A stretch of DNA of 64,000 bases from Alphaproteobacteria bacterium (GCA_015062525.1 SUUM01000002.1:82964-146963), one strand, 5' to 3'; shown: positions 5,051 through 64,000, counted from the first letter of the stretch. Numbers and translations: made by a program. Notes: generated from the letters alone by a model not told the origin.

Positions 5051-5057
5051 CAATTTA

Positions 5058-49061: not shown

Positions 49062-49307
49062 ATGAAATATCATCACGCTATTTGGCAATCGATATGCTAT
49101 ATTGCCCAAATTAATAATACAACATGTTCCGGACTTGCCAAAATGTGTGGTCTGGACGCGACAATTTTTAACCCCAGCAAGCGCAAAACAGTCTATGGTC
49201 AGCCCCGCTGGATAAGCACCGCCACCCTGGCCAAAGTCTTAACCACAACAAACATCAGCCCCATTCAATTCGCAGAAATTGTGCAAATGTTTCTGGATGA
49301 AAAATAG
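49062..49307 (+). CDS. Small HTH protein, paralog of 20432-20677
   Basis: CSGLAKMCGLDATIFNPSKRKTVYGQPRWISTATLAKVL aligns with SGLAKCSGLDPTTFNKSKRWSKEGQPRWPSTNSISKIL. Confidence 0.5.
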   Translation: MKYHHAIWQSICYIAQINNTTCSGLAKMCGLDATIFNPSKRKTVYGQPRWISTATLAKVLTTTNISPIQFAEIVQMFLDEK

Positions 49308-49464
49308 GAACGCTCACCTCAGAAATATTATTATGTCGCCGTTTAAAAGCCTGCATTATTCAGGCGTTTAGAACAACCCGCCAAGTAAATTTCTGAAAAA
49401 ACATAATTTAATGAAAAAAACACTTGAAATAGGATTTAATAAGGTATATTATTAGCAACGCTAT

Positions 49465-49502
49465 TCGGGCATAGTTCAGTCGGTAGAACAACGGACTGTT
49501 AA
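49465..49502 (+). pseudogene. Truncated tRNA-Asn, 5' half only (through the anticodon loop)
   Basis: 49444-49502 matches 58942-59000 (promoter region plus tRNA positions 1-38, 2 mismatches) and then diverges. A shared terminator-like hairpin cccagatttctggg+T-run lies at 49538-49556 and 59045-59066. Confidence 0.7.
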
Positions 49503-49625
49503 GCATGAGAGTAAGCCCAACAACAAATTCGAGTTTTGCCCAGATTTCTGGGTTTTTTTGTTGCTTTTTTTCAGTTCTGACGACTTATCACATTACGCTT
49601 AAAACCTGTTAAAACCTGTATGGAT

Positions 49626-49740
49626 ACCGTTTGAAAAACATACATTTTCATACCGCAAACCGATTTGAACCAAATTTTGTGTTCCACGATTTCAATACTG
49701 ATTTCTAGTTGATTTCAATGATGATTTCAACCAGAAAAAT
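49626..49740. repeat. Iteron-like short repeats (gatttcaa x4-5) plus a shared ttgaaaaacatacattt...accgcaaaccgatttgaa motif
   Basis: cgatttgaacc, cgatttcaatactgatttctagttgatttcaatgatgatttcaacc. The ~45-bp motif recurs at 59136-59180, and its first half also at 58818-58836. Confidence 0.55.
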
Positions 49741-49995
49741 TATACACACTTTTCCCCACCCCAGCACAACGGAATATCAATCTCTATCATTTTGCCCTCA
49801 CAATGCATAGAATAGCAAAAAAGGAGTCGCCAAACGGCTAACCCCTTTCCTATTCTGCTTTGGTTTTACACTACAATTATATGGATTTCAACAGGAAAGA
49901 TTTCATACTGCTGTAGCTATATGTGCATTTTCTTTATTGAATATACTTGCATATTGCTTTTTTGTGGATAAAATGTGTAAAAGTCGCTAAATAAA

Positions 49996-50595
49996 ATGTT
50001 AGATAAAGCCAAACAGATTGTCCAGTTTATGGATACTGTTGAAAAACTTTGTTATATAAAACGGTTTGCTACCTTAAAAGACAATAACAGGGAACGTGAT
50101 AGTGACCACATAATGAAATTGTCTTTCTTGGTTTTGTTGGTAGCCGATTTTCTTAGTGATAGATTAAATAAAACAAAACTTTTTGAACTTGCTCTTGTTC
50201 ATGATTTAGCTGAAGCGGATGCTGGTGATGTCTCTTATATAGAACAATTTGAGAATAATGAAGCCGTTGAACATAAAAGAGTTAAAGAATTAAATGTTAT
50301 TAAATCGTATCAAAAGCTTTTACCGTCACCACTTAATGATAAAATATATGAATTATTCATGGAGTATGAAACAGGCTGTACCATAGAATCCAAAATTATA
50401 CATAGTTTGGACAAGTTAGAGGGTGACTTGCAGTGTTGTAAGGACCTAAACCTATCGACTTATTGCAATCACAATGCTTTTATATCCCGTATATCCGCAC
50501 TCCAAAAGCATAAATATAGCACCATGACGAATGAGCCGATTATAGAAGCACTGGAAAGATTGATTCTTGAAAAGTCAAAGGATACTTCGAATTAG
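49996..50595 (+). CDS. HD-domain phosphohydrolase (YfbR-like)
   Basis: RDSDHIMKLSFLVLLVADFL ... LVHDLAEADAGDV (H...HD...D metal-ligand pattern). Confidence 0.6.
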   Translation: MLDKAKQIVQFMDTVEKLCYIKRFATLKDNNRERDSDHIMKLSFLVLLVADFLSDRLNKTKLFELALVHDLAEADAGDVSYIEQFENNEAVEHKRVKELNVIKSYQKLLPSPLNDKIYELFMEYETGCTIESKIIHSLDKLEGDLQCCKDLNLSTYCNHNAFISRISALQKHKYSTMTNEPIIEALERLILEKSKDTSN

Positions 50596-50618
50596 TAGAA
50601 ACGAGGAGCTAAACAAGT

Positions 50619-52229
50619 ATGACAAGGTTTACCAATAATTTGACAGGCGATATGGGTATTTCAAAGGAAAGCTATTCTAAATTATTTGGATACTTATCTG
50701 AAGTTTTTGCTCAAAAATTAAAAAAAACAATCCTAAATGAAATCAACAAATTAAGAGAGACAAACAAAGATTATAGACTTCTTGAGGTTTCTGATACACT
50801 TATTGTATCCATCTTTAAGTCCACAAAAAGAGAAGCTGTACGCTTGTGTGTTGGCTATCCTTTTCCGTTAGCTAGCAAGCAGTCTAGAATCTTCTTTTCA
50901 GGATATAAAGTTTCTGTTTTTATCCGTGATGAGCCCGTTAGAAAATTGCAACGGGAATATTTATTCAATTATTTGCAAAAAAACTATTCTGCAAAGCTGA
51001 ACATCATACATTCTACTGGTGATTTCAGAAAAAATTTATCTGGAACAAATAGAAAATTTAATAACAGGTGTTTTTATGTTGATTTGTATGACTTTATTGG
51101 AGACAGTATTATCGGCTTAAAATTTCTAGAGTCACTCAGGAAAACGCTTAGAATTCCAAAGACACGGTGCACTGTATTTTCTAAACATAGCAAACACATC
51201 CCGACTCAATACGCTATCTTTAACTCAACCAAATTTGCCAATTTAGTCAATAATTATGAGTATTCTACAATTATTGTTCCTGCATTGATTGACAATCAGT
51301 TTGATGCGTTTCTTAAAATTTTAAAATCAATTACACTCAAGAATTTCCGAATTATTGTTCCCAGCCGGAATCTATTTCTGACATTTTCTGAGAATAACAG
51401 TGAGATATTCTGGTGTAAATCACGAGACGTTCTTTTCAAGACAAATTCCATAGATAACTACATGGACATAGCATTAAATACTTTTACTGGAGAGCCTATT
51501 TCTGTGCTACCAAAAACAATAAAGGTTAGAAAAATTACAAAAAATGTATTTATAAATCCATTTAGCTCTTTAGAGGGGAAATCTATTTCTGTTGATGATT
51601 GTTCTAAAATTTGTGAACATTTACTATACAATGGCTTTAATGTCTTTGTTTCTGCAGGCTTTCACCAAGAGGAGTACATACAAAAATTAAAAGTTAAGAA
51701 TATAACTTTACTATATGATTCTGGATTTAAGGACCTTTCAGAAAAACTAACAGCACATAACATTGGATTGGTGATTAGCACAGATTCTGGTATTGCTCAT
51801 ATGACAGCGACCCTAGGCATTGCAACAATTGTGATTTATCATAGTTTCTTTTGGGACAGCTGTAGCAAACAATCAATTAGCAACGATGCCCTTGGCGGTT
51901 TTTGTCGAGCGCATTTACCAATGATACCAGTTGTAAATTCCGGGATACTGGATGCAGTAGAAAATATTTACCATCCTGCCATGACGTATAAACAGAAAAA
52001 ATGTATTAGGAGAACATTAAAACGAATGCAGGGAGCTTCAAATAAAACTGTCTTTTCTTTACATAAAGATCTTGTTTCTAAATTCCCGCATTTACATACG
52101 TTCTATTGCCCGGACATGTTACTTAAAAACGTTATAAACAATTCTAACAAAACAGACTCTTGGTCCTTGGTTAGTAATGTATGGCAAAATCTACCTGCTT
52201 ATAAAGTATCCAATTTTACTTTTGTTTAG
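50619..52229 (+). CDS. GT9-family (heptosyltransferase-like) glycosyltransferase with a ~150-aa N-terminal extension
   Basis: CFYVDLYDFIGDSIIGLKFLESLRK (GT9 N-terminal motif) and ISTDSGIAHMTATLGIATIVIY (GT9 C-terminal NDSGPMHLAAALG-like motif). Confidence 0.55.
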   Translation: MTRFTNNLTGDMGISKESYSKLFGYLSEVFAQKLKKTILNEINKLRETNKDYRLLEVSDTLIVSIFKSTKREAVRLCVGYPFPLASKQSRIFFSGYKVSVFIRDEPVRKLQREYLFNYLQKNYSAKLNIIHSTGDFRKNLSGTNRKFNNRCFYVDLYDFIGDSIIGLKFLESLRKTLRIPKTRCTVFSKHSKHIPTQYAIFNSTKFANLVNNYEYSTIIVPALIDNQFDAFLKILKSITLKNFRIIVPSRNLFLTFSENNSEIFWCKSRDVLFKTNSIDNYMDIALNTFTGEPISVLPKTIKVRKITKNVFINPFSSLEGKSISVDDCSKICEHLLYNGFNVFVSAGFHQEEYIQKLKVKNITLLYDSGFKDLSEKLTAHNIGLVISTDSGIAHMTATLGIATIVIYHSFFWDSCSKQSISNDALGGFCRAHLPMIPVVNSGILDAVENIYHPAMTYKQKKCIRRTLKRMQGASNKTVFSLHKDLVSKFPHLHTFYCPDMLLKNVINNSNKTDSWSLVSNVWQNLPAYKVSNFTFV

Positions 52230-53130
52230 ACTGTTTATGGCTTAACATTGGATAAAAACAGCACTCTGTACAGCAGGGACATTTCTCTTTTGTGCCAAGA
52301 TCCTTGATAACCATGGGCTTACTTATAACCCTACCACTATTTATACAAGGTGTCATTGTTCCATCTGGGCGCACGAATACAAATTCGCTACCTGCAAGGC
52401 AATTATCCATTATGTCTATCTGCCCAGTCTTAAAGAAATTGTGTTGAGCTGCAATAAACTTATCATCAGCCTTGAACTTACGAGAGAAGTCCATTATTGT
52501 TGTCACGTCTTCTTCTGGGATACACAAATTAACATCTGAGTTATGATAAAAGTCATCGTTATTATTAGCAAATCTAAAGGTATATGTGCATCCATATTTA
52601 CTTGCTAGTTCCGCAACATGTTCCAAGTTCGCAATGTTGCTATTGTGAGGTGTTATTGTTGTAGAAAACACAACGTTTATCTTCGGCAGCTGTTCTCTGA
52701 TTAGTTTCGCTGTTTGTATAACTGAATCATAGCAATTTATTCCACGTACTTTATGCATATCCTCTGGTCGCCCCTCTATTGATAGACATAAATATTCATT
52801 CTCTATCTTACCGTATACACTTTCCAGCAATGCCAAAACTCTTTTAGGATACGTTCCATTTGAGTTTACCCATAAATGCTTTAAGGCAGGCAGGTTGTCT
52901 ATTATAGACTTTACAACGTCTATTGCATCTTTTCTTAAAACGGGTTCGCCTCCTGATATACTCGCATCAATTATATCCTTGAAATAATCCTGTTTAAACA
53001 AATCGCCAAACTGTTCTGCATTTATTTCTGTTGGGGTAATCCCGGTCTTCCATATGTTGCACATAGTACAACGACTATTACATTTGTTGGTTATGGCAAT
53101 TGTTGCATATTTTACCATTTTACTTCCCAT
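52216..53130 (-). CDS. Radical SAM enzyme with C-terminal SPASM/twitch Cys cluster
   Basis: CNSRCTMCNIW (CxxxCxxC), SGGEP glycine-rich motif, and C-terminal C...C...CPCCTECC. Confidence 0.75.
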   Translation of the reverse strand: MGSKMVKYATIAITNKCNSRCTMCNIWKTGITPTEINAEQFGDLFKQDYFKDIIDASISGGEPVLRKDAIDVVKSIIDNLPALKHLWVNSNGTYPKRVLALLESVYGKIENEYLCLSIEGRPEDMHKVRGINCYDSVIQTAKLIREQLPKINVVFSTTITPHNSNIANLEHVAELASKYGCTYTFRFANNNDDFYHNSDVNLCIPEEDVTTIMDFSRKFKADDKFIAAQHNFFKTGQIDIMDNCLAGSEFVFVRPDGTMTPCINSGRVISKPMVIKDLGTKEKCPCCTECCFYPMLSHKQSKQK

Positions 53131-54181
53131 TTCTTTGTTTTTGCAATTGATGATCGTACATTAGTTTATTCAGTCTTTTTCTGAACTCTATTTCTGGTAG
53201 ATTGATATCCAGATTTATCTTGAAGTTTTCTTTTTCTTCAAGTTCGGATATTTCCTGAGAGTGATAATTTCTTTCTACTTCCTTGCTTATTACATCGTAT
53301 GTATCCTGTTCAGAATGAATAAATTGAATTCCTGTTGACAGCCAATATTCATATGAAATTTTAACAAGCAACCTCAGATCTACCTTATTCTGATTCAATA
53401 GCGGCATTAGTTTCTTTAGCAGCATACGCATTTTGGAGCCTTGCCCCTTATACTTTGGAACAATACCAGAAGCCGCCATCAATACTGACGTATGAACACA
53501 ATCCAATAGTGCGGTCATATTATCTTTATCTAATTTACTATCTGTATAAAATTCTTTGAATACGGGCAAATACAAGCCATTTTTATTAAGTAACCAATTC
53601 AGACGTTCTAACCCCATACCAACCTCAATAATATTATAAGTTTTGGACATGTATGGGAAATCATGCATAAATATTACTTCAGAAATTTGATCTTCGCCCA
53701 GATATAAGGCTAAAAAGGATTCACTGAATTTTTTATTACCCCATTGCGCTTGGTATGTAGAAGTTCTGACATCGACCCTGTCTGGGGTAGCACCATAATT
53801 AACCATCGTTTTTATCAAGTTATTTGCGGACGAGATAAATTGTTCTTCCGTTCCATTGATTGTAACAGCAGCAAAATTTATAAATGAAGTACCAGTCCCC
53901 TGTTTCACATCATTAACATATTGCATCCTGATAACTGGTTGATACACCATGAAATTAGGGACCGTTGATAGGTCCACTCCCTTTGACTCCATACTTTCTA
54001 AACGCTGAATTGCAGAAGTTGTAAACAGTGTTGTTTCCCTTTTATCATCTCTAACAACACTTTCTGGTTTCATTAGATTGTATTCTGGGAAGAATTTGTG
54101 GGGTTCTCCCCCCTTGGCCGAAATGATCGTATTTGGCCATGAAACACTTTTTTCAATCTTTTGCAAATCCAGGTTTATCAT
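53120..54181 (-). CDS. Class II aminoacyl-tRNA-synthetase catalytic-core-like protein (AlaRS/GlyQ-type)
   Basis: IIEVGMGLERLNWLL matches the (D/E)(T/V)GMGLERL element of AlaRS/GlyQ. TLFTTSAIQ resembles the AlaRS FTNAGMNQF region and EVIFMHDF resembles E(I/V)WNLVFMQ. 353 aa, with no tRNA-binding or editing domains. Confidence 0.45.
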   Translation of the reverse strand: MINLDLQKIEKSVSWPNTIISAKGGEPHKFFPEYNLMKPESVVRDDKRETTLFTTSAIQRLESMESKGVDLSTVPNFMVYQPVIRMQYVNDVKQGTGTSFINFAAVTINGTEEQFISSANNLIKTMVNYGATPDRVDVRTSTYQAQWGNKKFSESFLALYLGEDQISEVIFMHDFPYMSKTYNIIEVGMGLERLNWLLNKNGLYLPVFKEFYTDSKLDKDNMTALLDCVHTSVLMAASGIVPKYKGQGSKMRMLLKKLMPLLNQNKVDLRLLVKISYEYWLSTGIQFIHSEQDTYDVISKEVERNYHSQEISELEEKENFKINLDINLPEIEFRKRLNKLMYDHQLQKQRNGK

Positions 54182-55500
54182 TTCATGTGTTCCTTAAAGC
54201 TTGTATATTTTTGCATTTTTATTCGTTCTCTAAGGTCATCAAACGTGTTCTCTATACGAACTTTATTTCTTGTATGCGGAATTATAACATCTTGCCCACC
54301 CATGTAAGGTTGCAGGGCTTTTGGTATTCTTATGTACCCATCTTTTGTCTGATGATTTTCCATCAGTGCAATTACAGCACGTTCAGTTATTGCGGTAGAT
54401 GATATTGTATGTGCAAATGACCTCGTGCCTTTATCCTTTATTTTAATGTTAGCCCGACGAGCTTGGAAATCTGACAAATTTGAATTAGAGTGTGTTTCTT
54501 TATATGTTTGTTGAGAAGGGAACCATGCCTCAGTATCATACTTTTTATATCCAGGTGCCGCTATATCGCCAACACAAACGTTAACCACTCTAAACGGAAT
54601 TTCCAAGGATTTCATTATATCTTCTATGTTTCGTTGACAGAACAACTGCATCATTTCAGAGTCTTCTGGACGACAAAATATAATCTGTTCTTGTTTGTAA
54701 AATTGATGAACTCTGAATATCCCTCGATTAGCTTTTCCCGCAGCCCCAGATTCACTCCTAAAACAAGGAGTCTGTGCAGTATATAACAATGGCAACTTGT
54801 CTGCATCTAGAGTTTCGCCTGAATGATAGGGTACAATTGTTTGTTCAGATGTGCCTATCATGGTCAAATCCCAATCTTTTACATTATACTCTTGGTCCAT
54901 AATAAACGGGTGATACCCTGTAATATATAAGGCCTGTTCTTTTGTTAATAATGGCGTTCCCATTATTTCAAAACCTCGTTTTTCTAACAGATCTTCTGTG
55001 AAAGCAAAGACAGCATTCCTTAATCTAAGGCCATCATTTAGCCAGTAGAAAAATCCTCTGCCAGATATTTTTGTGCCTTTTTCAATATCTAAAATACCTA
55101 ATCTTGTCCCCAATTCATCATGCGACAACACCTTAAATCCTTTTGGAGTTGTATCACCGAATTTATATATTTCTACATTTTCAGTATCATCTTGACCAAC
55201 GGGTACATCTTCTGAGAGGTCGTTTGGGATCATTGCTGACAGAGCTCTCAACTCCTGACTTTTTTGAGCTATTTTGGTTTCTAACTGGGCCAATTTTGGT
55301 TTTTGTTGTTTTGCGGCCTCAATGTTTCTTTCAGCAGCATATTTATTTGCTAACGCACGCTCTTGTTCCACACAAGCTAACAGCTGACGATATTCTTCAT
55401 CTGCTTTGAGCAATGCATCAACATCTAATTTTACTTTTCGTAAAGCAACAAGTTTTCTAAAATAATCAGGATTTTGTCTAATAGCTTTCATGTCTAACAT
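54178..55500 (-). CDS. serS: Seryl-tRNA synthetase (full-length paralog or acquired copy)
   Basis: N-terminal MLDMKAIRQNPDYFRKLVALRKVKLDVDALLKADEEYRQLL (coiled-coil arm), TPCFRSESGAAGKANRGIFRVHQFYKQEQIIF (motif 2/3 region), AT-rich codon usage. ORF open to 55539. Confidence 0.8.
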   Translation of the reverse strand: MLDMKAIRQNPDYFRKLVALRKVKLDVDALLKADEEYRQLLACVEQERALANKYAAERNIEAAKQQKPKLAQLETKIAQKSQELRALSAMIPNDLSEDVPVGQDDTENVEIYKFGDTTPKGFKVLSHDELGTRLGILDIEKGTKISGRGFFYWLNDGLRLRNAVFAFTEDLLEKRGFEIMGTPLLTKEQALYITGYHPFIMDQEYNVKDWDLTMIGTSEQTIVPYHSGETLDADKLPLLYTAQTPCFRSESGAAGKANRGIFRVHQFYKQEQIIFCRPEDSEMMQLFCQRNIEDIMKSLEIPFRVVNVCVGDIAAPGYKKYDTEAWFPSQQTYKETHSNSNLSDFQARRANIKIKDKGTRSFAHTISSTAITERAVIALMENHQTKDGYIRIPKALQPYMGGQDVIIPHTRNKVRIENTFDDLRERIKMQKYTSFKEHMK

Positions 55501-55601
55501 GTATAAACCCCTTGTTAATTGTGGATATTTGTAGCACAAAATTGACAGATGTCAATATATTTGTTTGACAACACGCCTTTTTTTGTATAAATTTATCTCA
55601 A

Positions 55602-56543
55602 ATGGAACAGAAAAATACATTTTTTGCAAATCTGAAAACAAAAATTAAGCTTGCATCTTGGTGGCGACATTTTGTTCACCCACACCAACTATGGACTGCC
55701 ATAAAGTTCGCAGGACACTTTTATACAAAATTTTCTCAGGAAGAAAAAACACAATTTCAAGATGAACTGTCTGTTGTTTTAATTATTAAGGATGAGGCAA
55801 GCTACTTAGCTGAATGGATTGAATATCATAAAATAGTTGGGGTTACTAAGTTTTATATATATGACAATGAGTCTACAGATAATATAAAAGAAATTCTTAA
55901 AAATTACAGGGAGGACGTTGTCTATAAATATTGGCCTGGTAGAGGCCAGCAAATTTCTGCCTATAACGATGCTCTTAAGAATTATAAATTAAAAACTAAA
56001 TGGATGGCATTCATTGATACTGACGAATTCTTGGTACCTGTCCAACATAAAACTATTATTGATGTCATAAATGATATAAAACCAAAATATGGCCTGGGGG
56101 CGAGTTGGGTTAATTATGGTGACAGCGGACATGCGAAGCGAACCCCGGGGTTAACCATAGAACGGTTTACAAAAAGAGCACCATTGGAACATCCTAAAAA
56201 TCTCATGGTGAAATCGATTATCAACCCAAGGGCTGCTTTTATGTTTGCTGTCCATAATGGTTGTTTTCTTGGTTTCAGAAGCGGAATTGATGAAAATGGT
56301 AGAAAAATCGCAGGTTTTAATCTAAAACCCAGCATAAAGAAAATTCGTGTTAATCACTATTTTACAAAAAGTTATGAGGAATTTTTGAATAAAACAAAAC
56401 GTGGCGATGCAGAAACGCCAGACGGTCGTTTCAATAAATCCTTTGATGAGGGGAACACAAATGACATATATGATGATATTATGTTAAAATATGTTCCCGA
56501 AATCAAGGCTAGGCTAGAGAAGAAGGGATTGCTTACTCGATAA
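55602..56543 (+). CDS. GT92/GT2-like glycosyltransferase
   Basis: VVLIIKDEASYLAEWIEYHKIVGVTKFYIYDNESTDN signature. Confidence 0.5.
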   Translation: MEQKNTFFANLKTKIKLASWWRHFVHPHQLWTAIKFAGHFYTKFSQEEKTQFQDELSVVLIIKDEASYLAEWIEYHKIVGVTKFYIYDNESTDNIKEILKNYREDVVYKYWPGRGQQISAYNDALKNYKLKTKWMAFIDTDEFLVPVQHKTIIDVINDIKPKYGLGASWVNYGDSGHAKRTPGLTIERFTKRAPLEHPKNLMVKSIINPRAAFMFAVHNGCFLGFRSGIDENGRKIAGFNLKPSIKKIRVNHYFTKSYEEFLNKTKRGDAETPDGRFNKSFDEGNTNDIYDDIMLKYVPEIKARLEKKGLLTR

Positions 56544-57174
56544 TCTCTACTCCCTCACCAACAGTTTCTAATACATTTCCATCTACATCGAATATCAAGC
56601 CACAATTTTCTGGTATACAATAAACCTTAAACTTGTTTTCTTTTGCCACTTTTTTGACATGCTCAGAAGTTTCAGGCCAATGACACGCAACACATGCACC
56701 TTGTAATAAATTTAGCCCATCTTCTTGTTTATAATCGCCACGTTCATCCATTGCAGCAGCGGTCTTTATTGAACGCCCCATAATGATTGCACCGGCACTG
56801 CCACCATAAACTGGCTTACCCGATTTCATAAACATTATTAACTTTTTATCAAGTCCGTACTTTAATACATTATCTAGAAGTTTAAATGTATTTCCACCGC
56901 CAATATATACAGCATCATAATCATCTAAAATAATATTTTTTCCTGTCTGATCGTTTAGCATTTCTATAGCGATCGTATCACTGTATAACCTAACAACACT
57001 TGTAAACCATTCAAGCCCACCAGTATAATTTCCAGAATCCATCGCCAATGGCACATATAGGATTCTTCCTGTTGCTGGTAACGTATTGAAAAATATCGTA
57101 TCCAAGCGAGCACTATCCTCTGCACCACCGCCACCACCTAGATACAAAGTTGCTTTTTTATTTTCTATCGACAT
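56533..57174 (-). CDS. Peptidase S51 (dipeptidase E / cyanophycinase-like)
   Basis: LYLGGGGG..., VYGGSAGAIIMG (Ser nucleophile GxSAG), later His/Glu. Confidence 0.65.
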   Translation of the reverse strand: MSIENKKATLYLGGGGGAEDSARLDTIFFNTLPATGRILYVPLAMDSGNYTGGLEWFTSVVRLYSDTIAIEMLNDQTGKNIILDDYDAVYIGGGNTFKLLDNVLKYGLDKKLIMFMKSGKPVYGGSAGAIIMGRSIKTAAAMDERGDYKQEDGLNLLQGACVACHWPETSEHVKKVAKENKFKVYCIPENCGLIFDVDGNVLETVGEGVEIIE

Positions 57175-57799
57175 TGTTTTCTCCTTTGTTTTGGTATAAT
57201 TGTGGATTCAAATCTGGATCATTATACATCTTAAATTGATAATACGATGCAATTCTTTTTTTCCCAGACAGATATTCTTTTATTAAGTGTTTTACTGCTT
57301 TGACGAGAGATTTTTTTTGTTCCAACAAAACATCCAGCTTTTCAGAAGCTTGTTTCACTTTTTCAAAGCTGGTGTCGGTTCTTTGTGTTTGTTCGTTCAT
57401 GTGAAAAATTTTAAGGGATAAAATTGATAATCTATCTATCGTCATACCAAGTGTTTCTGTGTTTTGTATATCTTCACATACATCGGGTAATTCTGGGAGT
57501 AATAATTTAGTTATTGCGGTATCTATATTTTCATAGAAATTAGTTCGCATTTGATTAAGCTTATCAATTTTATATTTACAATCTGCAATTACAACAGGAG
57601 GAACATCTTTACGTCTGGCTATGTCTTCTGTATGCCATAACTTAAAGTTCATCAAATGATTTGCTTTAACATAGTTATATAATGTTTCTATCGGAGAACT
57701 GGATACCTCAAACTCCTCAGCCAAATCTTCCTCGTTTACATGCCATAATTCTGTATATTTTTCTTGGGCTTTAGCGATAGTATCTATTATTTCATCCAT
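57158..57799 (-). CDS. Hypothetical protein
   Basis: 213-aa ORF overlapping the S51 gene start; no motif recognised. Confidence 0.4.
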   Translation of the reverse strand: MDEIIDTIAKAQEKYTELWHVNEEDLAEEFEVSSSPIETLYNYVKANHLMNFKLWHTEDIARRKDVPPVVIADCKYKIDKLNQMRTNFYENIDTAITKLLLPELPDVCEDIQNTETLGMTIDRLSILSLKIFHMNEQTQRTDTSFEKVKQASEKLDVLLEQKKSLVKAVKHLIKEYLSGKKRIASYYQFKMYNDPDLNPQLYQNKGENNVDRK

Positions 57800-58135
57800 T
57801 ATATACCTCTCTTATAATTTCATTAACTAGCATATTTTTCTTCATTAGACAATATTTTTATCATTATATGATTTACATTCTGAATATATTTCGCCTTTGG
57901 CCAATCCAGCCAATGATATACGTGTGGTTGAAACAACGTTCTTTAGATTTGCAACCTCATCCAATGTAAAGTATTGCATATCTGCACACTTGTCCCCCTC
58001 GCAGTTGCGAATTGTGCCGGTATATTTTGATACCTCGAAAAAGAAATCAAAAGATTCTGTTCGACTGGCCAGATTGCTGGTGACATGAACACATTTGATA
58101 TCGCAAGTGGCTATTTAGCAAATTATAATAGATTA

Positions 58136-58729
58136 TTATTTTGTGCCATTCTCTGCTTCAATCAACTCATCAATGGCCATTAGCTTATCCTCCTGTTTAG
58201 ACAGACTTTTTTTCACAATAGATAAATCCTGAGTTTTGACATATTTTGCAACATCTTTTGGAATATATTTTAGTTTTTGACCTTCTATTTCTAGCGCTTT
58301 GCGCTGTTTTGTTAACGCCATAACTGTCTGTTTCCTTAAATCACGCAAAAACGCTATTCTTTCCGTTTTTTTTAGATGTAAATATTTTTCATTATTTACT
58401 ATTTCTATTTTAAATGGTTCTAGTTTAGATTGTTTAGCTTTTGCTTTCACCGCTCTTATAGTCCAAATTGGTAAAAGGATCAAGAGCCAATACATCAGTA
58501 AAACTATCGCGGTCGCAGCGATACCAATTCCCACTCTATAAATAGCTTTTTCTCGAACCGGGGCAGGAACAAAACAACATACCAACACCATAAGCAACAA
58601 CCAAAAACTAAATTGCATAATTTTTTTATTTGTCTTCGAGGTTTCGCCATATATTTTATATAAACACCAAAACAAAACAACAAAAGCTACCAAACCTATA
58701 AATTTAAATATGGTTACTAAAACATCCAT
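58136..58729 (-). CDS. Membrane protein with a C-terminal coiled coil, hypothetical
   Basis: Three to four TM helices followed by a Lys/Glu-rich helical tail. Confidence 0.45.
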   Translation of the reverse strand: MDVLVTIFKFIGLVAFVVLFWCLYKIYGETSKTNKKIMQFSFWLLLMVLVCCFVPAPVREKAIYRVGIGIAATAIVLLMYWLLILLPIWTIRAVKAKAKQSKLEPFKIEIVNNEKYLHLKKTERIAFLRDLRKQTVMALTKQRKALEIEGQKLKYIPKDVAKYVKTQDLSIVKKSLSKQEDKLMAIDELIEAENGTK

Positions 58730-58962
58730 GGAAAAACCTCTTATTTTTATTCCTATTCTAGCAACAACATTTGAAAATGTAAATTGAATATATTAGCGAT
58801 TAAATTATTGTTAGCACGGTCGTTTGAAAAACATACATTTACATACACTCTGGGACAAAAGTCGCAGGTTTCTGCGGTTTTGCGGGGTGCATAACACACG
58901 ACAAAATTCTTCTAAAAACGCTTGACTTCTGCATTTTTTTAGTATATTATATGCAACGCTAT

Positions 58963-59038
58963 TCGGGCATAGTTCAGTCGGTAGAACAACGGACTGTTAA
59001 TCCGTATGTCGTTGGTTCGAGTCCAACTGCCCGAGCCA
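58963..59038 (+). tRNA. tRNA-Asn (anticodon GUU)
   Basis: Acceptor tcgggca/tgcccga, D-stem gttc/gaac, anticodon loop cuGUUaa, T-arm gttgg ttcgagt ccaac, CCA encoded; 76 nt. Confidence 0.85.
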
Positions 59039-59279
59039 GATTTAGCCCAGATTTCTGGGCTTTTTTCTTTGTTTCCAGATTTCTAACTTGTTATCATTTT
59101 CCTCATTAAATGATTCTTGTTGACCGTATAGTCATTCAAAAAACATACATTTTTACACCGCAAACCGATTTGAAATGGTTTATTGATATACGTTATAAGA
59201 GTTAATATCAACCCTTATTTTAATGCCAGTTTTCTCTGTTTGTCCTTAATAAACTTTGCCCTAGACACTCGAAACCTTT

Positions 59280-60746
59280 TTATGAGATATAGCCCTGCAC
59301 CACCTCTAGCAACCGAACCATTGCGATAGTGTCCTGGCCACAGTATTCATGCAAATTCTTCATCATTTCTTCGGTTTGTGCTGGCGTTTGTTTACCAACC
59401 ATAAAGTCCATAAATTGATCACTGGCCTCGGTTCCGTTGTGTATTCCCAAATTCTCATACGACATTTCCGGTATGAATGCTGGCAATGTTTGTTTAATCG
59501 ATGCGCTGCCGTTCTGACATGGGCGATACAATCCACGTTCACGAAATGGCATCAGCAAGTCCAACATGCGGTCATTTATCGCCAGCAGTTGATCTGAATA
59601 TTCTGGAAAGTCACGGGCCATTTCTGTATTGCGACCTTGTTCAAATCCCTGGTTATAGACAATGACCGATCCGGTGGTACCGATAGTTTCTATCAGTTTC
59701 TTTATCAAACCCGGTCTTGGATCTGTGCTGGATTCATCGTGCAGATATTCGTAGTGTTCCAGTTCGCCCCCTGGGGTCCGTTGCACATGCAGTGAAAACT
59801 GGAAACAAATCTGCTGATATGGCCTTGAGTTATCAAACATCGGTACCGCTGGCATGATGGACTCGTAGTCCAGGAAATACAGTGGCCACTGCAATTGGTC
59901 TGTAAAGTTGTGCAGAATGTCCGGATTGACGACTTCGGTTCCGGTCAGGTATGCCTCTATGTCGCCTGGGTGCATTTGCTTGATACGTTCCTGTTCCGGT
60001 ATGCCGGTCAGGTCCGCACCGTATGCTGCATACATTTCATCTGCCAGCGCACCCTTAAATGCATTGAATACTGAATAGTCCGGTATATTCCGCCAGCAAT
60101 GGTGTTTGTAAGGACAATCATAGAACTTATTGCACTTGCCCTTGGATATTGCAATCCCCAGTTCTGGGCCGTCTAACACCGCACGAATGCGTTTCACATC
60201 TGCTGCGACTTGTTCCATTGGCTGCAGCTCTTCGTTTACGTTATGCAGCACAAACAGTTCCTGGATATCCAGCGCACCGTGTCTGACGTATTCTGGGTTC
60301 AGGGTAAGTATGTAGCAATCACGTATTTTGACACCACATTGTGTGAATACATATTTCTGGAATGACGCATCAAGATAGTGGTATTCGTGGGGGCTTGTGG
60401 TTGACTTAACCTCTATGATGTCCCATGTGCCGTCATTATTATTACGAAGAATGTCCACCGCACAGTATTCGCCTGTCTTGGTGGACAATGTTGCCTCATA
60501 GATATATGGGTCATCAGCCTTTATGGCATCTTGGGTCTGCCATGCTGCCTCATATTCCCATGGTTTAGCTGTGATGTATCTGCCACCTGGGAACTTATCT
60601 ATGGCCAATCTTCCGATTTCGTGTCCACGTTCCAGGATTGCCATGTTCATTTCAGTCTGGATATCCTTGCGCAGTTTCTTGAACCATATTGCGTTTGGAC
60701 ATTTTACCCCTAATACATAATCTGATTTTGATATTTTGAACATCAC
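59280..60746 (-). CDS. PD-(D/E)XK-fold nuclease-like protein (Cas4/RecB-like N-terminus, DUF2779-like)
   Basis: N-terminal ...SDYVLGVKCPNAIWF... then CAVDILRNNNDGTWDIIEVKSTTS (D...D/E.K core). 488 aa; 4-nt overlap with the downstream gene. Confidence 0.5.
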   Translation of the reverse strand: MMFKISKSDYVLGVKCPNAIWFKKLRKDIQTEMNMAILERGHEIGRLAIDKFPGGRYITAKPWEYEAAWQTQDAIKADDPYIYEATLSTKTGEYCAVDILRNNNDGTWDIIEVKSTTSPHEYHYLDASFQKYVFTQCGVKIRDCYILTLNPEYVRHGALDIQELFVLHNVNEELQPMEQVAADVKRIRAVLDGPELGIAISKGKCNKFYDCPYKHHCWRNIPDYSVFNAFKGALADEMYAAYGADLTGIPEQERIKQMHPGDIEAYLTGTEVVNPDILHNFTDQLQWPLYFLDYESIMPAVPMFDNSRPYQQICFQFSLHVQRTPGGELEHYEYLHDESSTDPRPGLIKKLIETIGTTGSVIVYNQGFEQGRNTEMARDFPEYSDQLLAINDRMLDLLMPFRERGLYRPCQNGSASIKQTLPAFIPEMSYENLGIHNGTEASDQFMDFMVGKQTPAQTEEMMKNLHEYCGQDTIAMVRLLEVVQGYIS

Positions 60747-61522
60747 GAAACCTTTATTCTTCCTTTATAATAGTACCAAAGCAAATGATCAAAACCATTT
60801 TTGCTTATCTTGTTACCTGCTTTTTTTATAATTTTCTCTATTGTTTCCGAATATACCGCATAGTCTTCCAGTTCTTGCTTTTTTACTTCAATTCCATAGT
60901 AATCAATATACAGTGGTAATGCGTTTTTTAATATTGAGTCGTATATTGAGTAATTGTCTTGCTCTTTCTTGCCCTCGAACAGATAAAAGCATGCATAGTG
61001 ACAGAACTTGCTTGCAAACGACTTGTTTTCCCTGGGCCTTATGGTTGCACTAGTTTTCCTTGCAATTATTTCTACCAGTTTATATTTCGTGCCATGTGGG
61101 TCTTGTAGATAATGTAGTAGTTTTTCTAGTGGAATCTTGCATATTCTTTCTGTTATTTCATCACGTCCAATACCGTCTGCGTTCAGATGTGTGGAATTAT
61201 CTCGATCTACAGCTATCACAGCATTTGCTATGATGTTCTTGTATGTTTTTCTGTCCGTCATGTTTTTTTTAATGTAATCCCTTAACTGACACATCCAATA
61301 TGCTGTTGAACCACCTTTGCCATTCTTGTCCGGCCCATACTCTTTGTTGCCGGAGTTTAAGTATGCAGCATCATTTTGAATCATAGCCTCAACCCTGGCC
61401 ACATTGTCTTGGGTTATTTCTACGAGTCCCTTAGTTTCTATGGTCGTGAGCATATATTTTTTTGCTATTTCTAGTTCATTTCCGATCTTATTCATTGATT
61501 GCCTTTCCATTGATTGTGCCAA
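60743..61522 (-). CDS. Hypothetical protein co-transcribed with the PD-(D/E)XK gene
   Basis: 259-aa ORF; no motif recognised. Confidence 0.4.
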   Translation of the reverse strand: MAQSMERQSMNKIGNELEIAKKYMLTTIETKGLVEITQDNVARVEAMIQNDAAYLNSGNKEYGPDKNGKGGSTAYWMCQLRDYIKKNMTDRKTYKNIIANAVIAVDRDNSTHLNADGIGRDEITERICKIPLEKLLHYLQDPHGTKYKLVEIIARKTSATIRPRENKSFASKFCHYACFYLFEGKKEQDNYSIYDSILKNALPLYIDYYGIEVKKQELEDYAVYSETIEKIIKKAGNKISKNGFDHLLWYYYKGRIKVS

Positions 61523-61659
61523 TTATAATTCTTCATAGGAATAAAAGCAATCTGTATCAAGATTGTTTTTTGCTAATTTTTCTTATAAAAGTCTGGAATT
61601 TTTTCCATTCAATGGTATAGTAAAAAGGATATTTAATTCTAGACATAAAGGGATATGAT

Positions 61660-64000
61660 ATGGCCGACACTGATTTCCGATTTTTCACGAATACTGATAG
61701 GGATTCTCTGCTTTCTCGATTTCAAACGACATTAAAAGACGCACGGTATTTTGATGTCCTGGTCGGGTATTTGCGTGCCAGTGGTTTTAACAATCTGTAC
61801 AAGGCATTTACTAAAATTGAAAAAATGAGAGTTTTGGTTGGTCTAAGTGCCGACCGTCAGGTTGTTTCCTTAGTTGAAGAATCTAATCCCCAGGGGCAAC
61901 TAAGGTTGTCACGCCATGATCTGAAGCAGAATTGTGCGGAACATGTCAAAAAGGAATTTGAGAATTGCGATGATTCCCCCGACACCGAAGACTCTGTTGC
62001 CTCTTTGCGACAGATGATTAAGGATGGTAAGCTTGAAATTCGTGCGTTCCCAGAACGGAACATTCATGCCAAGGTATATATCACCCGTTTCCCTGATGAC
62101 GATCGTGATTTTGGTAGTGTTATTACTGGATCTAGCAATTTTAGTGAAAACGGCTTAAAGGCAAACCATGAATTCAATGTTGAATTAAAAGATACACCGG
62201 ATGTAAAATTTGCCCTGGAACGCTTTGAGCAACTTTGGGAGCAAAGTGACGATATTACCAGCGAATACATCGATACAATCGATACGCAGACATGGCTAAA
62301 CCCCAATATTACACCTTACGAAATCTATCTGAAGTTCCTGTACGAATATTTCAAGGAGGAAATCAATTTCGATAAGGAAGGTGGCTTTATGTTGCCAGAT
62401 GGCTTTATGGAATTGGAATACCAGAAACAAGCTGTTACAGCGGCTAAAAAGATCCTGAATGCATATAACGGTGTATTCCTTGCTGACGTTGTTGGTTTAG
62501 GAAAAACATATATTACTGCATTATTGCTGCAACAAATGCCTGCCGAACGTAAACTGATTATTTGTCCACCTGTCTTGATGGATGGTTGGAAGGCTGCTAT
62601 TCGGGATTTTCGTGTTGGCGGTGCGGTCGTGGAATCTTTGGGCAAACTGGACAAAATTGAAAAACAGGCTGAAAACTACGATATTATCGTGATTGACGAA
62701 GCCCACCGTTTCCGCAATGAAGTTACATTTGGCTTTGAAAAGCTACAGCAAATCTGTCAGGGCAAAAAGGTTGTTCTGGTTTCTGCTACGCCAATCAACA
62801 ATAAATTTGATGATTTACTGTCCCTGATCAAGTTGTTTCAGCCAGTGAAACGCAGCACCATCCCTGGTGTAGTCAACTTGGAAGAATTCTTTAAGAGACA
62901 GTCTAGAAAACTAAATGGTCTGCAAAAAGGCACGCCTGAATATCGTGCTGCTGTTTCTGCTGCCTCTGCACAAATCAGAAACAAGGTTCTATCTCATCTT
63001 ATGGTTCGCCGCACTAGAACTGAGATCAAAAAATACTTTGATAAAGACATTAAAAATCAGGGACTTCATTTCCCAGAAGCGGCCGATCCACGTCGTATTA
63101 TTTACCAGTTTGATGAGCAGATCGACAATGTCTTTAATCAGACAATCGATTTGTTAAAGGAATTTTCATATTCCCGTTATACGCCACTGCTTTTCTTAAA
63201 GGAAAAACTTAGTGATTTTGCCGCACAACGTCAAAAGAATATTGGTGGCTTTATGAAGGGCATCCTTGTAAAACGTCTGGAAAGCAGTTTCTATGCATTT
63301 AAGCAGTCAACTGACAGGTTTGTCTTATCTTATGAACGCTTTATTGACATGTTCCAAAAAGGAACTGTGTACATCAGCAACAAGGTGAATGTTTATGACC
63401 TGCTGGACAACGACCAGGAAGACAAGCTCTTGAAGCTGGTTGAGGATGAAAAGGCGGAGATGTATTCTTCCGATCAGTTTAATGATGATTTTCTACCGGC
63501 TCTGCGAAGTGATCTGACCATACTGAGACATATCCAAAAGTTATGGAAAGAGATTGATCAAGACCCAAAAGCGGATGAGTTTGTCCGCATGTTGAAAAAG
63601 GACAAGGACCTTGCCGGTAAGAAAGTTATCGTCTTTACGGAATCCAAGGAAACATCCGACATTGTGTACAAACGCCTGGCCAAGGAATTCAAGGGCCGTG
63701 TTATTCGCTATTCTAGTGAGGGTGGCGACTTTGATGGCCGAACGTTATCTACCGAAGATGCACGCCAGCGCATCAATGAAAACTTTGATCCACGTGAAAA
63801 AACACAGTCGGACGACATTGATATTTTGATTACCACTGACGTGTTGGCTGAAGGTGTGAATCTGCATCGTTCAAATATCTTGGTCAATTATGATCTGCCT
63901 TGGAATCCAACCAGAGTTTTACAGCGTGTCGGTCGTGTAAATCGTGTTGGTTCATCGTTTGCTGAATACTTTGTCTATAACTGTTTCCCAACATCGGTAT
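61660..64000 (+). CDS. PLD-family (HKD) nuclease domain fused to an SNF2-family helicase; 3' end beyond the window
   Basis: HKD motif NIHAKVYITRF...GSSNFSENGL; helicase motifs DVVGLGKTYI (I), DEAHRFRN (II), SATPINN (III), QRVGRVNRVGS (VI). No stop codon before 64000. It is absent from the ORF track only because it is incomplete. Confidence 0.75.
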   Translation, partial: MADTDFRFFTNTDRDSLLSRFQTTLKDARYFDVLVGYLRASGFNNLYKAFTKIEKMRVLVGLSADRQVVSLVEESNPQGQLRLSRHDLKQNCAEHVKKEFENCDDSPDTEDSVASLRQMIKDGKLEIRAFPERNIHAKVYITRFPDDDRDFGSVITGSSNFSENGLKANHEFNVELKDTPDVKFALERFEQLWEQSDDITSEYIDTIDTQTWLNPNITPYEIYLKFLYEYFKEEINFDKEGGFMLPDGFMELEYQKQAVTAAKKILNAYNGVFLADVVGLGKTYITALLLQQMPAERKLIICPPVLMDGWKAAIRDFRVGGAVVESLGKLDKIEKQAENYDIIVIDEAHRFRNEVTFGFEKLQQICQGKKVVLVSATPINNKFDDLLSLIKLFQPVKRSTIPGVVNLEEFFKRQSRKLNGLQKGTPEYRAAVSAASAQIRNKVLSHLMVRRTRTEIKKYFDKDIKNQGLHFPEAADPRRIIYQFDEQIDNVFNQTIDLLKEFSYSRYTPLLFLKEKLSDFAAQRQKNIGGFMKGILVKRLESSFYAFKQSTDRFVLSYERFIDMFQKGTVYISNKVNVYDLLDNDQEDKLLKLVEDEKAEMYSSDQFNDDFLPALRSDLTILRHIQKLWKEIDQDPKADEFVRMLKKDKDLAGKKVIVFTESKETSDIVYKRLAKEFKGRVIRYSSEGGDFDGRTLSTEDARQRINENFDPREKTQSDDIDILITTDVLAEGVNLHRSNILVNYDLPWNPTRVLQRVGRVNRVGSSFAEYFVYNCFPTSV

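Follow-up and report, generated by a model that had tools for sequence, protein, structure and literature searches.

A PLD-SNF2 protein beside a tRNA-Asn gene as the putative restriction subunit of a two-gene R-M-like module

Type ISP restriction-modification (R-M) enzymes, such as LlaGI and LlaBIII, carry in this order a nuclease, a superfamily 2 (SF2) translocase, a gamma-class N6-adenine methylase and a TaqI-like target recognition domain (TRD). In Type III R-M systems, Mod is a beta-class methylase with an internal TRD, and Res joins an SF2 motor to a C-terminal PD-(D/E)XK nuclease. Type 2 of the BREX-related (BR) systems pairs an N6-methylase with an effector in which an HKD endoDNase and a Swi2/Snf2 helicase form one polypeptide; a DUF499 AAA+ ATPase is the defining component of BR systems, and DUF3780 is a further one of Type 2 (Rakesh & Krishnan 2026, PMC12839542). 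SauUSI (ref. 79 in PMC12839542) is a Type IV enzyme with a PLD nuclease and an SF2 ATPase; its active site needs a dimer of two PLD domains and cleavage depends on ATP. The most similar loci are found in Table 3 of Milman, Yelin & Kishony 2023 (PMC9881135), where a PLD+SNF CDS lies next to Cj0031-like 'Type II R-M' genes (CP083813.1, CP044495.1) that undergo programmed inversions, in the PADLOC model PDLC01075 'C3a139 HKD+Snf2', which derives from Shah et al. 2018 (PMC6546367), and in the family phrog_26785. In these catalogues, the architecture appears as an 'accessory' cluster of type III CRISPR, a PHROG of unknown function and a table row, with no name, test or mechanism. An earlier note on the DNA analyzed here had suggested that the fusion of a PLD nuclease to a SNF2 helicase, paired with a PD-(D/E)XK protein, may be an uncharacterized variant; the architecture has been catalogued already (C3a139, phrog_26785, Milman et al. 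2023), and the literature searched yielded neither a biochemical nor a genetic study of the PLD-SNF2/methylase family.

The PLD-SNF2 protein and the methylase gene downstream

The window, i.e. the whole stretch of 64,000 nucleotides from an Alphaproteobacteria bacterium that was analyzed, contains a tRNA-Asn (GTT) gene on the + strand (58963-59038; ARAGORN, Rfam tRNA 74.5 bits), with a promoter-like TTGACT-17-TATTAT at 58922-58950 (sequence scan) and a terminator hairpin after it at 59044-59061. To its right lie two genes on the - strand and, transcribed divergently from them, the PLD(HKD)-SNF2 gene on the + strand, whose ATG at 61660 is preceded by AAGGG. The intergenic region between the two operons (61496-61659, read from the sequence) presumably holds both divergent promoters, and a consensus promoter scan of it gave no score above chance. 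The PLD-SNF2 frame stays open for 780 codons from its ATG through the window end (61660-64000), which, with the nuclease and helicase motifs that it encodes, is far beyond chance. The long ORF that the earlier note saw running off the window edge is therefore genuine, and its full length is 1066 aa in contig L001, which is 100% identical to window positions 49280-64000.

PLD-SNF2 combines a Pfam PLDc_2 domain (aa 32-193, 3e-10) with SNF2-rel_dom (60.8 bits) and Helicase_C (65.8 bits), both helicase scores being above their cutoffs, and it also reaches the cutoff of RE_NgoFVII (24.0 bits versus 23.8). A single HKD motif (IHAKVYI...GSVITGSSNF; 62062-62142, + strand) includes H136 and K138 and agrees at the sequence level with the HxK...D...GSxN pattern of Nuc, BfiI and NgoFVII. 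The motifs of the SNF2-family ATPases are present on the same strand: GLGKT (motif I, 62494-62508), DEAH (motif II, 62695-62706), SATP, TTDVLAEGVNLH and QRVGRVNRVG (motif VI, 63922-63951), with motif V located at 63832-63867. The earlier reading of an HKD nuclease followed by a complete SNF2 core was thus correct: neither the catalytic His and Lys nor any of the helicase motifs is disrupted, and among 71 orthologues HxK...GSSN, GLGKT, DEAH and QRVGR are each at least 90% conserved. Sequence matches in the PDB include the ZorD-like 8qy7, ISWI, Rad54 and RapA. The protein belongs to the HKD+Snf2 family by near full-length profile matches to PDLC01075 C3a139 (9.4e-58, aa 13-778 to profile positions 7-742 of 948) and phrog_26785 (1.9e-209, aa 5-1000 to positions 2-1062 of 1087), and no recognized domain was found in its C-terminal ~270 aa. 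These features point to a putative restriction subunit that combines nuclease and translocase.

The earlier note had raised the possibility of a downstream methyltransferase, and in L001 the gene of an Eco57I/TaqI_C-type N6-adenine methyltransferase (methylase) begins 4 nt past the stop of PLD-SNF2, on the same strand and just outside the window. Of 81 PLD-SNF2 loci, 11 lie on contigs that break off too early to show the next gene, and each of the 70 with downstream DNA has a methylase gene directly behind PLD-SNF2 (70/70). The stop-to-stop ORF gap ranges from -54 to +19 nt in 65 of these 70, and both reverse look-ups (2/2) from methylase homologues of ~45% identity found PLD-SNF2 directly upstream. 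Such reciprocal coupling, with ORFs that nearly touch or overlap, speaks for two genes that depend on each other. A conserved third gene is lacking: no other neighbor is common to more than 4 of ~55 loci. Judged by this gene order, the partner of PLD-SNF2 would be the methylase beyond the window and not the neighboring nuclease-like gene pair. The best reading, to which we assign a probability of roughly 0.7, is a widespread, self-contained, two-subunit ATP-dependent R-M-like defense module.

In the methylase, FYTP, DPAxGSG and NPPY follow one another and precede a C-terminal TaqI-type TRD, an order characteristic of the gamma class; across 57 methylases the three motifs are conserved and the TRD is not. 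The fold model matches CamA, PglX/BrxX, MmeI, DrdV and M.TaqI, the whole-length model being of moderate confidence (pLDDT 68, pTM 0.40). The N-terminal domain (aa 1-175) is predicted as an alpha/beta fold with pLDDT 82-90, and its invariant residues are R60, R88, R92, N93, W123, R124, S126 and similar. The methylase is a gamma-class N6-adenine methyltransferase similar to Type IIG enzymes and PglX; its N-terminal domain is specific to the family, and its TRD is of the TaqI type. The 'Type IIG' filing of the family normally implies a nuclease of its own, and it was counted against the two-subunit reading.

The alternative that survives best, although unlikely, is that the methylase is a self-sufficient Type IIG enzyme with an N-terminal nuclease, and PLD-SNF2 is auxiliary or independent, e.g. 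a nuclease in reserve or one that processively degrades DNA already cut. Milman et al. name such genes Cj0031-like Type II R-M enzymes. The PADLOC model 'REase_MTase_IIG' covers the methylase over its whole length (9e-276), and the N-terminal 175 aa form the confidently predicted alpha/beta domain. However, of the Type IIG features only the methylase (NPPY) and the TRD (TaqI_C) were found: no D...(D/E)xK triad is conserved in the N-terminal domain among 44 to 57 aligned sequences, and a profile of the N-terminal 390 aa gave no match in the PDB. Moreover, the long structural alignments (1069-1133 columns) go to PglX/BrxX, which to our knowledge lack a nuclease domain, and the strict reciprocal coupling with PLD-SNF2 favors an obligate pair. 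A cryptic nuclease may nonetheless reside in aa 1-175, and PLD-SNF2 may function without the methylase.

The relationship of the methylase to PglX/BrxX in sequence and structure also fits a BREX-like, non-degradative exclusion, by which the methylase would mark self DNA and the SNF2 motor would block phage replication without cleavage; SNF2 helicases are components of BREX type 3 and of some BREX-related systems. This alternative is improbable. The conservation of the HKD His, Lys and GSSN in the orthologues implies selection for catalysis, and PglZ, BrxC/DUF499, BrxA/B and DUF3780 were not found in the flanks.

Neighboring genes and the probable tRNA-Asn island

The two genes on the - strand were described in the earlier note as a 488-aa Cas4/RecB-like, DUF2779-like protein and a 259-aa partner. 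The first description was accurate except for the start: the gene spans 59280-60743 and encodes 487 aa from the ATG at 60743, as called in public assemblies, while the longer form (59280-60746, 488 aa) begins with a GTG for which this ATG is the next codon. An identical protein is annotated in an Alphaproteobacteria MAG. The match to Pfam DUF2779 (PF11074; 153.9 bits versus a cutoff of 23.3, 3e-45) places it firmly in that family, whereas Cas_Cas4 stays under its cutoff (16.7 bits versus 22.7; PADLOC Cas4 1e-5). A D97/E112/K114 triad, the cysteines C15, C204, C210 and C216, and exonuclease motifs (LDYES at 291, YNQGFE at 363, HNGTEASD at 435) indicate a Cas4-like PD-(D/E)XK nuclease domain containing four Cys at the N terminus and an exonuclease domain of the DEDDh 3'-5' type at the C terminus, a domain assignment that follows PMC13621843 and PMC3985635. 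Its homologues adjoin or are fused with uracil-DNA glycosylase, and it is more likely a DNA-repair nuclease. The second gene (60743-61495) encodes 250 aa from an ATG at 61495 with a GGAAAGG ribosome-binding site; the 259-aa form starts from a TTG (60743-61522). Its TGA stop overlaps the DUF2779 ATG (TGATG), which indicates that the two genes form an operon. The 250-aa protein belongs to PF27257 (HI_0787_N; 702 homologues), and its AF2 model is all-alpha (pLDDT 93.4) with no Foldseek match in the PDB or BFVD.

That PLD-SNF2, the DUF2779 nuclease and the 259-aa protein together form a new DISARM-like system, as the earlier note proposed, is more improbable still than exclusion without cleavage. 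The three genes are adjacent and divergently transcribed, the 250-aa gene is divergent from PLD-SNF2 in 4/4 copies of the cassette lineage (window, L003, L093 and L094), and nuclease or unknown functions are typical of defense islands. However, by tblastn, the DUF2779 and 250-aa proteins accompany PLD-SNF2 only in L001-L003, copies of one cassette lineage with 96-98% nucleotide identity, and in 0/79 more distant loci (82 in total). Both are degraded in L003, where a deletion has left only a remnant of DUF2779 and a frameshift disrupts the 250-aa gene next to an intact PLD-SNF2 and methylase; L093 likewise has no more than the DUF2779 remnant. Homologues of each were found in unrelated contexts, those of the 250-aa protein being solitary genes with variable surroundings. 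DrmA and DrmB were not found in the flanks, and the NCBIfam DrmD score is 134 against a cutoff of 610. The co-occurrence data largely refute the three-gene model, and of the supposed 259-aa partner the ORF stands and the partner role does not. Both proteins are apparently neighbors rather than conserved partners in the R-M module, and the 250-aa gene may have an accessory role within the cassette lineage.

The position beside tRNA-Asn and the restriction-like defense character of the locus, both noted earlier, are supported. A direct repeat of 59 nt (49444-49502, + strand, versus 58942-59000; 96.6%, blastn) comprises the 5' half of tRNA-Asn and 21 nt upstream, which suggests that this tRNA has been used repeatedly as an insertion site. 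The 9.4 kb between the repeats have 34.7% GC versus 41% on both sides. In L093, the cassette lies between a full tRNA-Asn and, 9474 nt away, a direct repeat of 83 nt that copies the 3' half of this tRNA; in the window and L001, no second repeat of the 3' half was found within 6.7 kb past the window end. The tRNA-Asn marks an insertion hotspot that the cassette adjoins, and by these sequence signatures the module probably sits on an island beside it. The weakest alternative, a housekeeping SNF2 protein (a RapA-like transcription or repair factor) near a methylase by chance, retains almost no probability despite a weak RapA match (1e-13, helicase C-terminal motifs only), as it scores 50 versus a cutoff of 576, carries an N-terminal HKD nuclease, and is patchily distributed across many phyla with variable flanks. 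It is already refuted by the conserved methylase partner and by the mobility of the cassette, copies of which share 97% identity beside tRNA-Asn in genomes that are otherwise unrelated.

Specificity, proposed mechanism and comparison with known systems

In the close relatives L003, L004 and L018, the methylase locus contains inverted repeats (450 nt at 92%, 291 nt, and 303 nt at 99%, respectively), a silent antisense ORF that carries TaqI_C, and an adjacent recombinase gene matching the model of Mpi-family serine invertases (317 bits versus a cutoff of 272). L093 likewise has the silent TRD ORF and the invertase gene, and in the natural variant P0128 the silent-arm sequence is found fused to the methylase's constant region. 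Judging from the silent antisense TRD and the 291-450-nt inverted repeats flanking the invertase gene, specificity in these relatives is evidently phase-variable. L001 has an intact invertase and lacks both TRDs as well as the inner repeat arms, and its methylase is cut exactly at the TRD start, leaving 892 aa; in the assembled contig, the truncation is a fold-back junction with ~6 nt of microhomology. Since the methylase of the window's strain has no specificity domain, this copy of the R-M module is probably inactive. Another contig of the lineage, L094, stops at the repeats with a fold-back artefact, which was counted against the L001 truncation.

For the two-subunit module, we infer methylase-dependent restriction by translocation, collision and PLD dimerization. 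The methylase-TRD subunit would read a short, probably asymmetric site and methylate host DNA. At an unmethylated site, it would recruit or license PLD-SNF2, whose SNF2 motor would translocate on double-stranded DNA driven by ATP. Cleavage would follow once two PLD domains meet, because one HKD motif supplies only half of the catalytic center, as it does in Nuc, BfiI and SauUSI; the meeting would possibly be a collision of converging complexes, as in Type ISP or Type I enzymes.

Among the known systems, the loci of Milman et al. 2023, C3a139 and phrog_26785 have the same HKD/PLD and SNF2 domains beside an Eco57I/TaqI_C methylase, and in some members the TRD is invertible. Type 2 BR systems share the N-terminal HKD-Swi2/Snf2 effector paired with an N6-methylase; DUF499 and DUF3780 are absent from the Pfam matches listed for the flanking genes here. 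SauUSI is similar in the fusion of an N-terminal single-HKD PLD domain to an SF2 motor but reads modified DNA through a C-terminal domain of its own and is not known to have a methylase partner. Unlike SauUSI, a PLD-SNF2 protein coupled to a methylase presumably attacks unmodified DNA.

Class 1 DISARM (DrmA, DrmB, DrmC-PLD, DrmD-SNF2 and DrmMI) likewise combines a SNF2 helicase, a PLD nuclease and a large N6-adenine methylase, and partial HMM matches were obtained to DrmD (5e-33) and DrmMI (1.5e-29). However, the module is not DISARM: PLD and SNF2 are fused here, and no DUF1998 (DrmB) is among the Pfam matches listed for the flanks in L001/L083, L003 and L093. Type III R-M is distinguished by the N-terminal PLD nuclease, the gamma-class motif order and the C-terminal TaqI-type TRD of the present module. 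Type IIG/IIL enzymes and BREX PglX (MmeI, DrdV, BrxX) are homologues of the methylase-TRD subunit by both sequence and fold; the difference is that no nuclease motif was found in this subunit, and PLD-SNF2 would supply nuclease and motor in trans.

Compared with Type ISP enzymes, the module has the same activities in the same order; by this likeness, it would start from an asymmetric site, translocate with ATP and cleave when complexes collide. It differs in its two polypeptides, in a PLD/HKD instead of an Mrr/PD-(D/E)XK nuclease and in its SNF2-like motor. The split genes and the PLD nuclease place it outside Type ISP and make the likeness a functional one: by this analogy, the module is like a Type ISP enzyme divided into two subunits, with PLD as its nuclease.

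PLD-SNF2 and the methylase gene downstream

The right end of the window contains a tRNA-Asn(GTT) gene (58963-59038; found by ARAGORN and the sole match of the Rfam search), two minus-strand genes and a divergent plus-strand frame, all where the earlier note had placed them. The first minus-strand ORF (59280-60746) can be read as 488 aa from a GTG start, a product with no exact database match; the form on record in public assemblies is 487 aa from ATG 60743 and belongs to DUF2779 (Pfam, 153.9 bits), with a sub-threshold match to Cas4. The second (60743-61522, minus strand, 259 aa) is called as a 250-aa protein from ATG 61495, which has GGAAAGG ahead of it, and its stop overlaps the DUF2779 start (TGATG), implying that the two genes form an operon. 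On the plus strand, PLD-SNF2 starts at ATG 61660, preceded by AAGGG, and its frame then runs without a stop through 780 codons until the window ends; the Pfam domains are PLDc_2 (aa 32-193), SNF2-rel_dom and Helicase_C, with RE_NgoFVII barely over cutoff. Scanning the divergent region for promoters yielded no signal above shuffled expectation.

An exact match to the 487-aa protein lies on contig Ga0257090_10001078 (L001), which is 100% identical to window positions 49280-64000 and extends 6.7 kb further. Full-length PLD-SNF2 was found there to be 1066 aa, and the downstream methyltransferase envisaged in the earlier note is present, a gene of the Eco57I/N6_Mtase/MmeI_Mtase type that begins 4 nt past the PLD-SNF2 stop. 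Next come a serine recombinase of 199 aa, an EcoRI-like methylase and two small PLD proteins. When a single genome of each species was scanned, 80 loci with relatives of PLD-SNF2 (41-100% identity) were recovered, in groups that include clostridial lineages, Chloroflexota, Proteobacteria, Bdellovibrionota and CPR lineages. By tblastn, the methylase lies directly downstream in 70 of 81 loci, the other 11 contigs stopping short of it, and in 65 of these 70 the two stop-to-stop ORFs are separated by -54 to +19 nt. In the reverse direction, two methylase homologues at about 45% identity were picked blind to context, and both have a 1064-1066-aa PLD-SNF2 directly upstream (2/2). Clustering of every ORF up to 4 kb away on each side brought out no third conserved gene (the biggest neighbour cluster covered 4 of about 55 loci). 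This constant pairing and the lack of any other shared neighbour define a two-gene module amid variable surroundings: PLD-SNF2 and the methylase are an obligate pair, encoded by near-abutting or overlapping genes. The methylase has at least 8000 relatives. Searches of plasmid and phage proteins returned distant relatives alone (at most 37% identity), with uninformative annotation such as 'helicase-related protein'. Methylase frames from two Peribacteria MAGs (L063 and L078) have TGA codons in frame where Gly or Trp-like residues are conserved, consistent with an alternative genetic code of those CPR lineages and not with pseudogenes.

The motifs for nuclease, ATPase and methylase activity are intact at the sequence level. 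Among 71 full-length PLD-SNF2 orthologues, conservation reaches 90% or more in the single HKD motif of each polypeptide (IH-x-K...G-x-VITGSSNF), in motif I (GLGKT), in motif II (DE-x-H), in motif V and in motif VI (QRVGR-x-NR). An alignment of 57 methylases showed conservation of FYTP, DPAxGSG, NPPY, a long N-terminal region and a PFLNGGLF/YNFT block; the C-terminal TaqI_C region varies among relatives, as expected of a specificity domain. The methylase matches PADLOC 'REase_MTase_IIG' end to end (9e-276), and its moderate-confidence model aligns with CamA, PglX/BrxX (about 1100 columns), M.BseCI, MmeI, DrdV and M.TaqI. Its N-terminal 175 residues are predicted to form a confident alpha/beta domain with invariant Arg, Asn, Trp, Ser and His residues, and it is possible that the methylase carries a cryptic nuclease of its own. 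This region contains no D...(D/E)xK triad, and a profile search of the PDB with the N-terminal 390 aa gave no match; we therefore consider PLD-SNF2 the probable nuclease of the system.

The EcoRI-like adenine methylase past the recombinase (invertase) has 271 aa; the two PLD proteins with it are NucT/DrmC-like with a single HKD each, one of 333 aa with a hydrophobic N-terminal leader and the other of 165 aa. The trio occupies L001 1-2160 and L083 303-2912, about 2.7-6.7 kb past the window end, and a similar trio stands behind the cassette in L004, another PLD-SNF2/methylase locus. It may represent another R-M pair or a nuclease that is secreted.

DUF2779 and the 250-aa protein

The earlier note had taken the PD-(D/E)XK (DUF2779) gene pair as the partner of PLD-SNF2, a role that falls instead to the methylase. 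By tblastn, the DUF2779 and 250-aa genes adjoin PLD-SNF2 only in L001-L003, one cassette lineage with 96-98% nucleotide identity. Even within this lineage they decay: all that is left of the DUF2779 gene in L003 is a remnant in which the first codons abut the last, and a frameshift interrupts the 250-aa gene. PLD-SNF2 (99% identical) and the methylase are intact in L003. Of two further copies of the cassette, L093 retains a DUF2779 remnant and an intact 250-aa gene, and L094 has the 250-aa gene without DUF2779. Judged from gene content, the two proteins are neighbours and not partners of PLD-SNF2. A T5orf172/MUG113 (GIY-YIG-like) gene occurs in the window at 3324-3953 (minus strand); its 37%-identical homologue in L004 (9180-9758) sits between tRNA-Asn and PLD-SNF2, the slot of the window's 250-aa/DUF2779 pair.

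The DUF2779 protein combines a Cas4-like PD-(D/E)XK nuclease (D97, E112, K114; Cys15/204/210/216) with a DEDDh exonuclease (LDYES, YNQGFE, HNGTEASD), a make-up that agrees with published descriptions (PMC13621843, PMC3985635). The window gene appears among the annotated genes of an Alphaproteobacteria MAG, and its relatives form a graded series, several of them fused to, or directly followed by, uracil-DNA glycosylase (UDG). Homologues P0242, P0244, P0248, P0276, P0291 and L095 7001-8968 are 74-95% identical and often about 650 aa long; P0291 includes the UDG domain, and in L095 a UDG gene begins 3 nt after DUF2779. A mycoplasma member is published as quasi-essential. This UDG fusion or linkage, together with the quasi-essential member, points to DNA repair, which we infer to be its role over dedicated defence.

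The 250-aa protein belongs to a large orphan family, PF27257 (HI_0787_N), with at least 702 homologues. Inspection of three contexts showed homologues as solitary genes among NERD/Macro, Fic/DUF488/helicase, or HerA/MutH/Dcm/HNH genes. Its AlphaFold model is confident (pLDDT 93.4) and all-alpha; Foldseek comparison of the model with the PDB and BFVD returned noise only (E >1), and a profile search of the PDB gave nothing significant. The family has many invariant residues, for example in SFASKFCHYAC and QDN, and recurs in defence-like variable regions.

Mobility of the cassette and inversion of its specificity domain

L003, binned as Oscillospiraceae, and L093 carry the cassette at 97-98% identity, on backgrounds otherwise unlike that of the window. 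In every copy of this cassette a tRNA-Asn or a fragment of it is adjacent. The defence locus beside tRNA-Asn proposed at the outset is supported. The L093 segment begins with the DUF2779 remnant, continues with the 250-aa gene, PLD-SNF2, the methylase and the silent target-recognition domain (TRD), and closes with the invertase. The tRNA stands at one end of it and an 83-nt direct repeat of the tRNA 3' half with its terminator at the other, 9474 nt apart; genes for a tyrosine integrase and an HTH_17 protein are located across the tRNA from the segment. L003 retains the 3' half only of tRNA-Asn (8863-8902). Upstream of its cassette are Type I HsdM/HsdS and Abi_C genes (3425-8791), and downstream a ParB-N6_N4 methylase, DUF5681 and a terminase large subunit (18613-21676); this setting is a defence island abutting phage-like genes.

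The window also holds a separate 9.4-kb insertion (49503-58941) with 34.7% GC against 41% in both flanks. It is flanked by a 59-nt direct repeat (49444-49502 and 58942-59000, 96.6% identical) made of the 5' half of tRNA-Asn and 21 nt upstream, and looks like an island inserted on the 5' side of the tRNA; no integrase was seen within it. Its genes encode a seryl-tRNA-synthetase paralogue, radical-SAM, GT2/GT92, peptidase S51, DUF4254 and HD hydrolase proteins, and unknowns.

An antisense 299-aa ORF in L003, which has a TaqI_C domain too, shares an inverted repeat of 450 nt (92% complementary) with the 3' part of the methylase gene; similar inverted repeats occur in L004 (291 nt) and in L018, a further PLD-SNF2/methylase locus (303 nt), and L093 has the same antisense TRD ORF and an invertase gene. 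The recombinase by the methylase belongs to the NCBIfam Mpi 'master DNA invertase' family (317 bits against a cutoff of 272). In P0128, a natural variant, the constant part of the methylase is connected to the silent-cassette sequence PLKEWGINIYRGVLTGCN, the arrangement that switching should produce. Variability and inversion are restricted to the methylase TRD. Programmed inversions have been described in a Cj0031-like Type II R-M gene beside a PLD+SNF CDS (Milman et al. 2023, PMC9881135).

The L001 methylase is 892 aa, against 1114 aa in the intact operon of the L003 or L093 type, and runs to ...GIKTGCNE, after which the sequence folds back into the reverse complement of the silent-cassette start (ACAGGTTGT-AATGAATGCAT-CATTACAACCTGT). 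The junction lies at about 3249-3263 of L001, about 3.5 kb past the window end, at a conserved TGCN(D/E)AF motif; the sequence across the apparent TRD deletion is ACAGGTTGTAATGAATGCATCATTACAACCTGT, and relative to L003 both TRDs (~1.4 kb) are gone. The deletion may be genuine, or it may have arisen in the reads or the assembly. A metagenome scan with the 51-nt junction sequence gave no match, its own source contig included, and so carries no weight either way. The tail of L094 (10764-10988) folds back on itself at the methylase inverted repeat, indicating that metagenome assemblies mis-join at this shufflon and that gene calls there require caution; the junction in L001 shares only ~6 nt of homology, which in our judgement makes a k-mer assembly artefact unlikely. 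If the junction is real, the window strain combines an intact nuclease-motor gene with a methylase unable to recognise DNA. Such a combination would be tolerable only if restriction needs the methylase-TRD subunit, and it hints, indirectly, that restriction depends on this subunit.

Proposed mechanism and comparison with known systems

The obligate pairing leads to a concrete, testable model of an ATP-dependent restriction enzyme whose nuclease is of the PLD type, to which as an overall picture we assign a probability of roughly 0.7. The methylase-TRD subunit would recognise the sequence and mark self DNA, and would license PLD-SNF2 on unmodified sites; the SNF2 motor would then translocate along dsDNA. 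Cleavage would require two single-HKD domains to pair, by analogy with Nuc, BfiI and SauUSI, either in a standing dimer or when converging complexes collide, as in Type I and Type ISP enzymes, the collision detail being much less certain.

The locus is a defence module, and an ordinary one; the value of the analysis is mostly corrective, the partner being other than first proposed. The main gains are a clear definition of the two-gene unit, its invertible specificity domain, which makes the module a natural example of inversion-driven specificity switching, and a natural TRD-less variant. Standard tools would label the methylase alone ('Type IIG') and leave PLD-SNF2 an orphan or a CRISPR 'accessory', which misdescribes a very common two-gene module of many phyla, including Chloroflexota, Proteobacteria, CPR and many clostridial groups.

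The DISARM-like reading of the earlier note does not hold, as neither DrmA nor DrmB is present and DrmD scores far under cutoff. Nor is the locus a Type-2 BREX-related system, since DUF499 and DUF3780 were not found among the Pfam matches listed for the flanking genes. Among other systems considered and rejected, MANTIS/Gao_RL (four genes including an AAA+ ATPase), Hma/BR, Mokosh, Zorya ZorD and Dpd DpdE/DpdK gave partial or sub-threshold matches or lacked their defining partners. The fusion architecture, which the earlier note thought might be an uncharacterised variant, is catalogued, PLD-SNF2 belonging to an HKD+Snf2 family (PADLOC C3a139, phrog_26785), and no experimental study of the pair was found in the literature. 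This is a known kind of system, biochemically uncharacterised. C3a139 originates from a type III CRISPR 'accessory' cluster (Shah et al. 2018, PMC6546367). The pair differs from Type III in nuclease type and position and in its gamma-class methylase, and from Type ISP in comprising two polypeptides and a PLD nuclease; it would work like a split version of a Type ISP or Type I/III-like enzyme. We tentatively suggest, as a reading somewhat less likely than not, a distinct, unnamed class of ATP-dependent R-M systems, a split, PLD-armed counterpart of Type ISP that would be methylase-dependent, cleave through paired HKDs and be switchable by an Mpi-type invertase; in addition, the 250-aa gene, with its confident but unmatched fold model and its defence-like neighbourhoods, could be an unrecognised accessory or stand-alone defence gene.
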